Counted from the first letter of the stretch, positions 55,133 to 56,101 are shown. The stretch is DNA of 64,000 nt from a phage (GCA_033648345.1 GCA_033648345.1_4121.1), one strand, 5' to 3'. Program-made: numbers and translations. Notes: generated from the letters alone by a model not told the origin.

Positions 55133-56101
55133 GTGAAAAAGCTTGATTTAAATGCAATTTCTGAAGAAGTACTGGATGAGTGTTTTGCTAGTGAAGAAGT
55201 CAACGTATTAGAGGCTCTTGATTCCGTCGAAGAAGAAGAAGAACATGACGGTCACAAGTTTGAGAAACCAAAAACAGGTATCAGCTTAACTCGCCCTAAA
55301 GGGATAACGAATGAAATGCTCATCCAAGCAGTGCGTGATGGTATTGACGTTGAAAAGAACATTGACCTTTTGGTTCGCTACAACTATCCAATGGTAGTAA
55401 GTGTTGCACGTAAGTGTACATGTTTTATCCCATTTGAAGATAAGATTTCTTATGGTGTTGAAGGTTTAATGCGAGCAATTCATACGTTCGACACTACCAA
55501 AAATGTTAAGTTCATTACATATGCAACAACAACTGTGTACATGACAATCTATAACGAAAGTGCAGATGCTAATTATCTAGTGCATTTCCCACGTTATATG
55601 AGTGTTAATAACATTTATGTGAAACGTTGTGTAGAAGAGTATCAAAGGAAACATGGTAAATACCCAACTCCTGAGATGGTGTCAAAAGAGACTGGTATTG
55701 AGATTCAACACGTTAAGAATTGTCTAACTTACAATAACACTTATGTAGCATTGAATATGAAAATGAGTAATGATTCAGAAAGTACATTATCTGACATTGT
55801 TACTTCAGTTGAACCTGATTACAACTTAGGCGTAGAAACTGTCAGTACCCCACTGGTACAAAGTATTGCAGAAATGATGAGTAACCTATCTGCCAAAGAC
55901 CGTGAATTGATTGAACGTGTACATGGTATTGGTTCTTATTCTGAACCAGAAACGCTACGAGAAATCATTGAGAGTGGTTTTGAAGATGAGAAGGGTAAGG
56001 TCATGACTGCTCGTTCTTCATTGCACCGTAAGTACTCTGAAGCAATGGAACGACTGCGTAAGATGGTTAAGACAAAAGGTTATGAGTTCGAAGATTTTTA
56101 A
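55133..56101 (+). CDS. sigma70-family RNA polymerase sigma factor
   Basis: Region 2-like GLMRAIHTFDTTKNVKFITYATTTVYMTIYN; region 4-like C-terminus (ELIERVHGIG...TLREI...); GTG start after AGGAG RBS. Confidence 0.6.
   Translation: MKKLDLNAISEEVLDECFASEEVNVLEALDSVEEEEEHDGHKFEKPKTGISLTRPKGITNEMLIQAVRDGIDVEKNIDLLVRYNYPMVVSVARKCTCFIPFEDKISYGVEGLMRAIHTFDTTKNVKFITYATTTVYMTIYNESADANYLVHFPRYMSVNNIYVKRCVEEYQRKHGKYPTPEMVSKETGIEIQHVKNCLTYNNTYVALNMKMSNDSESTLSDIVTSVEPDYNLGVETVSTPLVQSIAEMMSNLSAKDRELIERVHGIGSYSEPETLREIIESGFEDEKGKVMTARSSLHRKYSEAMERLRKMVKTKGYEFEDF

Follow-up and report, generated by a model that had tools for sequence, protein, structure and literature searches.

A sigma-70-family factor of a RaK2/121Q-type jumbo coliphage and candidate middle promoters of its lineage

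The sigma gene and its genomic setting

The window, that is, the whole 64,000-nt stretch of phage DNA that was analysed, encodes a sigma factor of the sigma-70 family on its + strand (Table 1). The GTG start of the gene, which is preceded by a Shine-Dalgarno sequence, could be fixed because the N-terminus MKKLDLN is kept in all close homologues. The gene is the last of five + strand genes in an operon that is headed by an early-type promoter of sigma-70 consensus, kept in 121Q as TTGACA-17-TATAAT, and that contains a second sigma-70-like promoter candidate. The operon ends at an intrinsic terminator, the only one found in the scanned stretch 54000-57300. The conserved consensus promoters upstream and the terminator downstream suggest that the sigma gene is probably transcribed early by host sigma-70. 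Another promoter-like site (54992-55020) is located inside the preceding gene, but was not conserved in 121Q and was treated as a chance occurrence.

This preceding gene of the same operon encodes an HslV-like protein (phrog_24804, 1.8e-86; phrog_1040 'peptidase HslV family', 2.8e-6) for which no Pfam match was obtained. In RaK2 and 121Q, the sigma gene is likewise preceded by a gene for a hypothetical protein of comparable size (170 aa), the likeness being one of size and position. Compared to 121Q, the HslV-like gene and the sigma gene (54613-56101) are the most diverged locally, with nucleotide identities of 72% and 65%, respectively, versus 79-93% in the neighbourhood otherwise and 85-93% for the flanking genes. 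Within the sigma gene, codons 1-24 are 90% identical to 121Q, and the DNA-reading helices are also conserved. We can only speculate that the fast change outside these helices reflects changing protein partners or conflict.

Beyond the terminator follow a promoter of a different class and a structured RNA, both described below, and then a sigma-70-consensus promoter for the downstream small ORFs and an HNH endonuclease gene. The latter (57108-57992) is located some 450 nt downstream of the structured RNA, past two small ORFs; as the other three copies of the RNA have no consistent HNH neighbour, a link between the two was assumed to be absent. A tRNA region is also present in the window (39137-39215, 41338-41427 and 43777-43850), in which ARAGORN identified Ser-GCT and Thr-TGT, with a weak third Rfam hit at 39137 (32.6 bits).

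Over the 4 kb surrounding the sigma gene, the window shares 99.5% identity with Escherichia phage fEgEco12 (374.7 kb), 96-99% with some ten further jumbo coliphages and approximately 84% with Asteriusvirus genomes of the 121Q and PBECO4 type. The fEgEco12 orthologue, g519, is annotated as 'RNA polymerase sigma factor'. At the protein level, the sigma is 99% identical to those of fEgEco12-/Ecwhy_1-type phages, 59% to that of 121Q, 39% to that of RaK2 and 33-37% to those of CBB and Eneladusvirus. Homologues in the range of 33-40% identity, many of them annotated as sigma factors, occur in RaK2, CBB, Serratia BF, Yersinia fHe-Yen9-04 and in Erwinia and Salmonella jumbo phages. The protein is assigned to the group 2 (RaK2-like) jumbo phages by orthology and by its conserved gene position amid small early genes, in genomes of some 350 kb. 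The initial annotation had assigned the gene to a T4-like early region. This is appropriate insofar as small early-type genes are located behind sigma-70-consensus promoters; however, the phage, a jumbo phage of about 375 kb of the RaK2/121Q type, is not strictly T4-like.

The gene is already known, being annotated in fEgEco12 and a hallmark of RaK2/121Q-like jumbo phages. The RpoD-like sigma of group 2 jumbo phages has been described by Iyer et al. (PMC7824862), the sigma has been named a hallmark of group 2 (Sharanji paper, PMC11895373), and in CBB the gene has been placed in the predicted early region (PMC5259590). According to the prevailing view, such a sigma would redirect host RNA polymerase to promoters of a distinct class (PMC7824862; PMC13282480). 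The novelty initially implied for the gene is thus not maintained, and the sigma gene itself adds nothing new; in the literature, we found no experimental work on these jumbo-phage sigmas. In addition, Gp519 is given as absent from phage Ecwhy_1 in the fEgEco12 paper (PMC13070987). By tblastn, a 99.7% identical copy was located at positions 1665-2630 of Ecwhy_1 (MH791411.1), and its supposed absence is therefore an artefact of the annotation or of the record start.

Table 1. Features in the window (positions counted from its first nucleotide)
Feature	Position	Strand	Remarks
M-class promoter	1858..1885	+	upstream of topoisomerase II large subunit gene; PWM 29.2
M-class promoter	33538..33565	+	PWM 25.2
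M-class promoter	38675..38702	+	about 460 nt upstream of tRNA region; PWM 27.7
Early-type promoter, sigma-70 consensus	53537..53565	+	TTGACG-17-TATAAT; operon head; E-class PWM 17.1, 0 hits in simulated genomes
Sigma-70-like promoter candidate	53858..53886	+	TTGACT-17-TACAAT; second in sigma operon; from sequence reading
HslV-like gene	54613..55110	+	165 aa; just upstream of sigma gene, same operon
Shine-Dalgarno sequence	55122..55126	+	AGGAG; 6 nt ahead of GTG start, from sequence
Sigma-70-family sigma factor ORF	55133..56101	+	322 aa
Intrinsic terminator	56106..56137	+	11-bp stem and T-run; ends sigma operon
M-class promoter	56138..56165	+	GGGACA-N16-TACAAT with TG extended −10; directly after sigma terminator; PWM 30.4
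Putative structured noncoding RNA	56173..56650	+	core ~56207-56625, ends approximate; unannotated, conserved; behind M-class promoter 56138
Sigma-70-consensus promoter	56670..56698	+	TTGACA-17-TAGAAT; for small ORFs and HNH endonuclease gene

Domain layout and derived residues of the phage sigma

The product of the ORF belongs to the sigma-70 family. A conserved N-terminal helix (aa 1-18) and a variable acidic linker (aa ~19-58) are followed by region 1.2 (~59-79), region 2 (80-142), region 3 (163-225) and region 4 (~246-315). The block GLMRAIHTFDTTKNVKFITYATTTVYMTIYN, which had been noted as region-2-like, corresponds to residues 111-141 of the translated 322-aa protein. Region 2 was recovered by Pfam Sigma70_r2 (PF04542; residues 80-142, 37.2 bits versus a cutoff of 24), which also matched 20/20 family representatives, and region 3 by Sigma70_r3 (PF04539; residues 163-225, 44.9 bits versus 25.3). 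The only PHROG matched by the protein was PHROG 351, 'RNA polymerase sigma factor' (2.7e-48). The best NCBIfam models were RpoD_Cterm, actinobacterial SigB and RpoS, those of FliA and SigF scored lower, and no ECF model was among the best 25. The nearest PDB entries by sequence were mycobacterial SigB and SigA, followed by E. coli RpoS and RpoD, and the family profile was aligned by hhalign to residues 373-576 of E. coli RpoD and to residues 65-326 of E. coli RpoS, with a probability of 99.5% in each case. An AlphaFold run with 11 close homologues yielded a pLDDT of 51; a rerun with 111 sequences yielded a model with a mean pLDDT of 84, whose top Foldseek matches were sigma-S and SigA chains in holoenzyme structures. 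The assignment to the sigma-70 family by the initial annotation was hence confirmed, with regions 1.2 to 4.2 present by profile, alignment and model evidence, and so was its region 2 by a profile score above the cutoff.

For region 4, which had likewise been proposed from the sequence, the profile evidence was divided. Pfam did not detect the region in the 322-aa protein itself. However, PF04545 matched five of 20 divergent family representatives (best E-value 3e-5), and the hhalign alignment of the family profile (residues 52 to 321) to E. coli RpoS covers region 4.2 and the C-terminal tail (99.5%). In the AlphaFold models, residues ~241-314 form helices as expected at a pLDDT of 80-98, and in the model based on 111 sequences the helices 241-250, 254-264, 275-280 and 294-314 reach 87-98. 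The Pfam miss is explained by a 9-aa insertion (SGFEDEKGK, aa 281-289) between the helices of the 4.2 helix-turn-helix, along with the changed recognition helix. Region 4 was therefore counted as present, as supported by the family-level alignments and the predicted structure.

Judged by its sequence, the sigma is group-2-like in layout, with RpoS and RpoD as the closest relatives, yet it represents a distinct and derived phage family. The phage protein is 23-28% identical to cellular sigmas. Among 1.84 billion cluster representatives searched, 19 phage-type clusters were obtained at E < 1e-30, followed by a gap, with cellular sigmas starting from 1e-27. The scores against models of cellular sigmas are far below the equivalog cutoffs in NCBIfam (RpoD_Cterm, 96 bits versus 354; full RpoD models, 54-66 bits versus >480; RpoS, TIGR02394, 81.8 bits versus 378.7). 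Unlike the cellular hits, the phage sigma has no match to PF03979 or PF00140 that would indicate a region 1.1, and it does not qualify as a group 1 primary sigma. All regions from 1.2 to 4.2 are retained across the 19 divergent clusters, and in 11 close homologues, with overall identity down to 48%, the helices that read DNA in regions 2.4 and 4.2 are invariant.

The derived character is apparent at the level of single residues (E. coli sigma-70 numbering). N383, D403, F419, F427, T429, Y430, R584 (as R294) and R599 are kept, and N383, F419, F427, T429 and Y430, which belong to the −11A/−7T pockets, are retained family-wide. Substitutions affect positions for core binding (E407Y, N409V), DNA melting (Y425V, W433T, W434T), region 2.4 (R436Y, Q437M, T440Y, R441N), recognition of the extended −10 element (H455Y, E458V) and reading of the −35 element (E585S, R586S, R588H, Q589R); R451H is a further change. 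None of 20 family representatives has a tryptophan at position 433 or 434. Compared to most of the family, this clade has a more derived region 2.4 (R436Y, Q437M, R441N, R448Y). The initial description of the protein as a 'conventional' sigma therefore does not apply, since W433 and W434 are absent and the −35-reading helix is altered.

Promoter classes, −35 elements and a structured RNA

Promoters were surveyed in the intergenic regions of 371 kb of fEgEco12 assembled from the public record. Window coordinates were taken from direct scans of the window, a constant offset to fEgEco12 being valid only near the sigma gene. Three promoter classes are present. The early class consists of an A-rich upstream stretch, TTGACA or TTGCAA, 17 nt and TATAAT (40 sites versus 0 in simulated genomes), and its sites cluster in the terminal repeats and in small-ORF regions, including the window. 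The late class comprises TAAATA-type motifs ahead of structural genes (59 observed versus 9 expected). The M class is characterized by G(A/G)GACA, 16 nt and TATAAT with TG at −15/−14 (extended −10); a PWM scan of fEgEco12 identified 30 sites on the + strand and one on the − strand, versus 0-1 in simulated genomes. M-class sites precede the genes for gp32 (two sites), primase, clamp, topoisomerase II, exonuclease, RNase H, Dda helicase and the gp55-like g336. No fourth conserved class was seen in 118 intergenic upstream regions by k-mer enrichment and visual inspection, which was not exhaustive. TGAAACG, the published consensus for the −35-like box of CBB, was also considered as a middle motif for this phage; it was not enriched, with 1/50 copies intergenic in this genome, and was rejected, the local class being GRGACA. 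The 'cassette promoters' had originally been suggested as targets of the sigma. If these are the TTGACA-17-TATAAT promoters of the window, they fit host sigma-70, and GRGACA-N16-TATAAT with TG is the better candidate.

The −35-like box of the M class differs between lineages. In 121Q, GRGACA and the −10 element are kept at orthologous M-class promoters while the spacers have diverged. The site orthologous to the promoter upstream of the topoisomerase II large subunit gene reads GAGACA in 121Q and TTGAACA in RaK2, and the sites after the sigma gene that are orthologous to the promoter at 56138 read GGGATG and TTGAACA, respectively. The region 4.2 helix is RSS(L/I)HRKY in fEgEco12 and 121Q and SRTSLHRCY in two metagenomic lineages, in each case together with a GRGACA box. 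The helix RGTLHYKF of RaK2 occurs with TTGAACA, and the helix KATLSRRY of CBB, Serratia BF, Yen9-04 and four metagenomic contigs occurs with TG(A/G)AAC. A TG(A/G)AAC box is also located upstream of the RNA copies of GAP32, for which the box alone was read. These lineage-specific boxes sit before corresponding genes and RNA copies, and the TTGACA early promoters are unchanged in CBB. The sigma-70 of the hosts is essentially the same for all these phages. The sigmas of the two metagenomic lineages are only about 36% identical to that of the window and have a CBB-like region 2, yet carry the helix and the −35 box of the window type.

Across the lineages compared, the −35-like element thus covaries with the region 4.2 helix of the sigma, a pattern that comprises some three or four independent transitions in related phages. 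The box and the −10 element are 16-17 nt apart, as expected for region 4, and every variant is close to TTGACA. The arginine that contacts C−31 in sigma-70 (R584) is present as R294, matching a GACA in which the C is likewise kept; residues 585, 588 and 589 are changed, and the two upstream bases of the box differ from TTGACA. Together, this provides moderate evidence that the phage sigma reads the −35 element of the M class. A more far-reaching reading, which we regard as tentative and somewhat short of even odds, is that the sigma would be the specificity factor of a lineage-specific middle class (GRGACA here, TGRAAC in CBB-like phages and TTGAACA in RaK2), that its 4.2 helix would co-evolve with the box, and that the same promoters would drive an RNA family of about 450 nt. 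If this holds true, RaK2-like jumbo phages would provide a natural series of altered-specificity sigma/−35 pairs along with a three-tier sigma cascade. The natural pairs of sigma helix and −35 box could be swapped in vitro, which would be a concrete and cheap test.

The RNA in question is encoded in the 660-nt 'gap' after the sigma gene, which is the best-conserved stretch locally, with 96-100% identity to 121Q versus 77-93% for the flanking genes. fEgEco12 has four copies, each directly behind an M-class promoter, the other copies being located at 59916-60390, 110671-111081 and 195789-196152. Nucleotide identity of the RNA is approximately 70% across genera whose sigmas are only about 35% identical, and there are one to five matching places per genome (two to five in most), mostly unannotated; in most RaK2-like jumbo phage genomes, each copy follows an M-class promoter. 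A pattern search of IMG/VR yielded 43 RNA loci, of which four were spurious, and 35 non-redundant copies entered an RNAalifold consensus. This comprises 54 pairs, more than half of which (30/54) show compensatory double changes, compared to 3-12 in shifted controls; 97.8% of the cells are standard pairs versus 36-42% in the controls. The element therefore looks like an undescribed family of structured RNAs of about 450 nt. Rfam 15, at both gathering and permissive thresholds, gave no match in 56050-56850 beyond terminator-like noise. For the repeated element, a T4-type R-loop replication origin (middle promoter and unwinding element) was also considered. Due to the strong base-pair co-variation a structured RNA was favoured, although the two are not mutually exclusive. 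Four ncRNAs identified by RNA-seq in the PA5oct paper gave no link to the RNA family; PA5oct was neither among the organisms tallied for the RNA family nor among the matches listed (45 of 62 records). The RNA family, whose transcription would be driven by M-class promoters, is a separate lead that may be new, and is the most novel thing in the region.

A possible role in middle transcription and relation to known systems

The reading that we favour, with a probability of roughly 0.55, is that this RpoD/RpoS-like sigma of group 2 jumbo phages is transcribed early and directs the host core polymerase to the M-class promoters as middle promoters. Early on, the host sigma-70 holoenzyme would use the consensus promoters at 53537 and ~53858 to transcribe the sigma operon up to its terminator at 56106. 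The phage sigma would then replace sigma-70 on the host core RNA polymerase and guide it to the class with G(A/G)GACA, 16 nt, TATAAT and TG at −15/−14. This middle class would serve the replication genes, the gene for the gp55-like late sigma and the structured RNA family, resulting in a three-tier cascade from host sigma-70 to the phage sigma and on to the gp55-like sigma acting on the TAAATA late promoters. In this way, a 375-kb phage that has no polymerase of its own could order its gene expression.

The proposed late sigma is the product of g336, a gp55-type gene of fEgEco12 at about 191 kb (190974-191912), outside the window. It matches phrog_12791, 'sigma factor for late transcription' (1.4e-152), and phrog_234 (1.5e-16), and is located directly upstream of gp47/gp46-like genes. 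The N-terminus of g336 is probably annotated too long: the annotated start region includes an M-class promoter (190988-191015), similarity to the PHROG sets in at residue 36, and position 191073 offers an alternative start with a good ribosome-binding site. Another fEgEco12 gene outside the window (119214-119546) is annotated 'putative sigma 54'. For g276, this function was ruled out, as the protein is a ribosome hibernation factor (PF02482, S30AE) and is unrelated to transcription initiation.

The −10 region of the M class speaks against the favoured reading. Promoters with an extended −10 element can work without a −35 element, and TGnTATAAT is best read by host sigma-70. The residues H455 and E458 (extended −10), Q437, T440 and W433 (−12) are Y, V, M, Y and T in the phage sigma, which would therefore need different contacts to read TATAAT. 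The phage protein might thus be a working sigma for other promoters, with the M class being read by host sigma-70 together with a phage activator of the MotA/AsiA type at the −35-like box, as T4 middle promoters work via MotA/AsiA with host sigma-70. We consider this unlikely, at about one chance in four, but it accounts for the perfect TGnTATAAT of the M class in view of the replaced residues for TG and −12, and a MotA-like factor would give the same lineage pattern. In addition, AsiA homologues occur in some group 2 jumbo phages (Iyer et al., PMC7824862). However, the box is located at sigma-region-4 distance (16-17 nt) with all variants resembling TTGACA, and it tracks the sigma's own 4.2 helix, even where region 2 and region 4.2 differ in affinity. 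The survey of 118 intergenic upstream regions, although not exhaustive, also offered no fourth conserved class on which the sigma might act instead.

It is still less probable that the sigma acts mainly as a competitor or decoy in host shut-off, occupying the host core polymerase or binding a host or phage regulator. The changes at the positions for core binding (E407, N409) and melting (Y425, W433, W434) would be in line with such a function, as would the position of the gene among the fastest-diverging nearby (65% nucleotide identity to 121Q), a pattern typical of conflict genes. However, it is precisely the DNA-reading helices of regions 2.4 and 4.2 that are invariant in close homologues, the −11A/−7T pocket residues N383, F419, F427, T429 and Y430 are kept family-wide, and none of the regions from 1.2 to 4.2 has been lost in 19 divergent clusters. 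The least probable explanation, to which we attribute very little weight, is that of a recently captured host rpoS or rpoD copy without a dedicated phage role. RpoS, RpoD and SigB are indeed the best cellular matches, and a secondary acquisition from cells has been suggested (Iyer et al., PMC7824862). However, an identity of only 23-28% to any cellular sigma, the gap in the search of 1.84 billion representatives between 19 phage-type clusters (< 1e-30) and the cellular sigmas (1e-27), the synteny kept across genera and NCBIfam scores far below the equivalog cutoffs (96 versus 354 and 82 versus 379) effectively refute a recent capture, whereas an ancient capture is possible.

Assuming that the phage sigma serves the M class, its relation to known systems can be outlined as follows. 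fEgEco12 has a number of T4-like modules (topoisomerase II, clamp loader, gp32, UvsX and gp41/gp61 homologues). It shares with T4 a gp55-type late sigma encoded next to gp47/gp46 homologues, as is T4 gene 55, a sliding clamp and TAAATA late-type motifs. In contrast, T4 lacks a full-length sigma, and the reading of its middle promoters depends on host sigma-70 that has been remodelled by AsiA and MotA; in the present phage, the full-length phage sigma is the candidate for this step. The sigma of the window is itself not homologous to the gp55 family in PHROGs, where it matches phrog_351 only. The initial contrast with T4, in which gp55 and a conventional sigma were set against each other, was therefore incomplete, as this phage carries both a full-length sigma and the gp55-type g336. 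With respect to the proposed mode, the closest parallel is gp28 of Bacillus phage SPO1, the middle-gene sigma in a sigma cascade (PMC13401047). There, an early product, made by means of the host primary sigma, redirects the host core polymerase to middle promoters, including those of genes for late transcription, and the same is proposed here. This likeness is one of proposed mode, and in the cascade put forward here the late step would use a sigma of the T4 gp55 type.

With regard to the protein itself, E. coli RpoS is the top structural match and is similar in length (322 versus 330 aa) and in its end-to-end arrangement of regions 1.2 to 4.2, including the C-terminal tail; however, identity to sigma-S in structural alignments is only about 23-24%. 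The phage sigma differs from RpoS and other group 2 sigmas in the lack of W433/W434, in the substitutions E407Y, H455Y, E458V, E585S, R588H and Q589R, in the 9-aa insertion in the 4.2 helix-turn-helix and in the phage-specific N-terminal helix and acidic linker. In contrast, no categorical difference separates it from the RpoD-like sigmas of group 2 jumbo phages, such as fEgEco12 g519, 121Q gp167, RaK2 ORF244 and CBB_513, which belong to the same family and occupy the same genomic position, and of which the protein in the window is a member.
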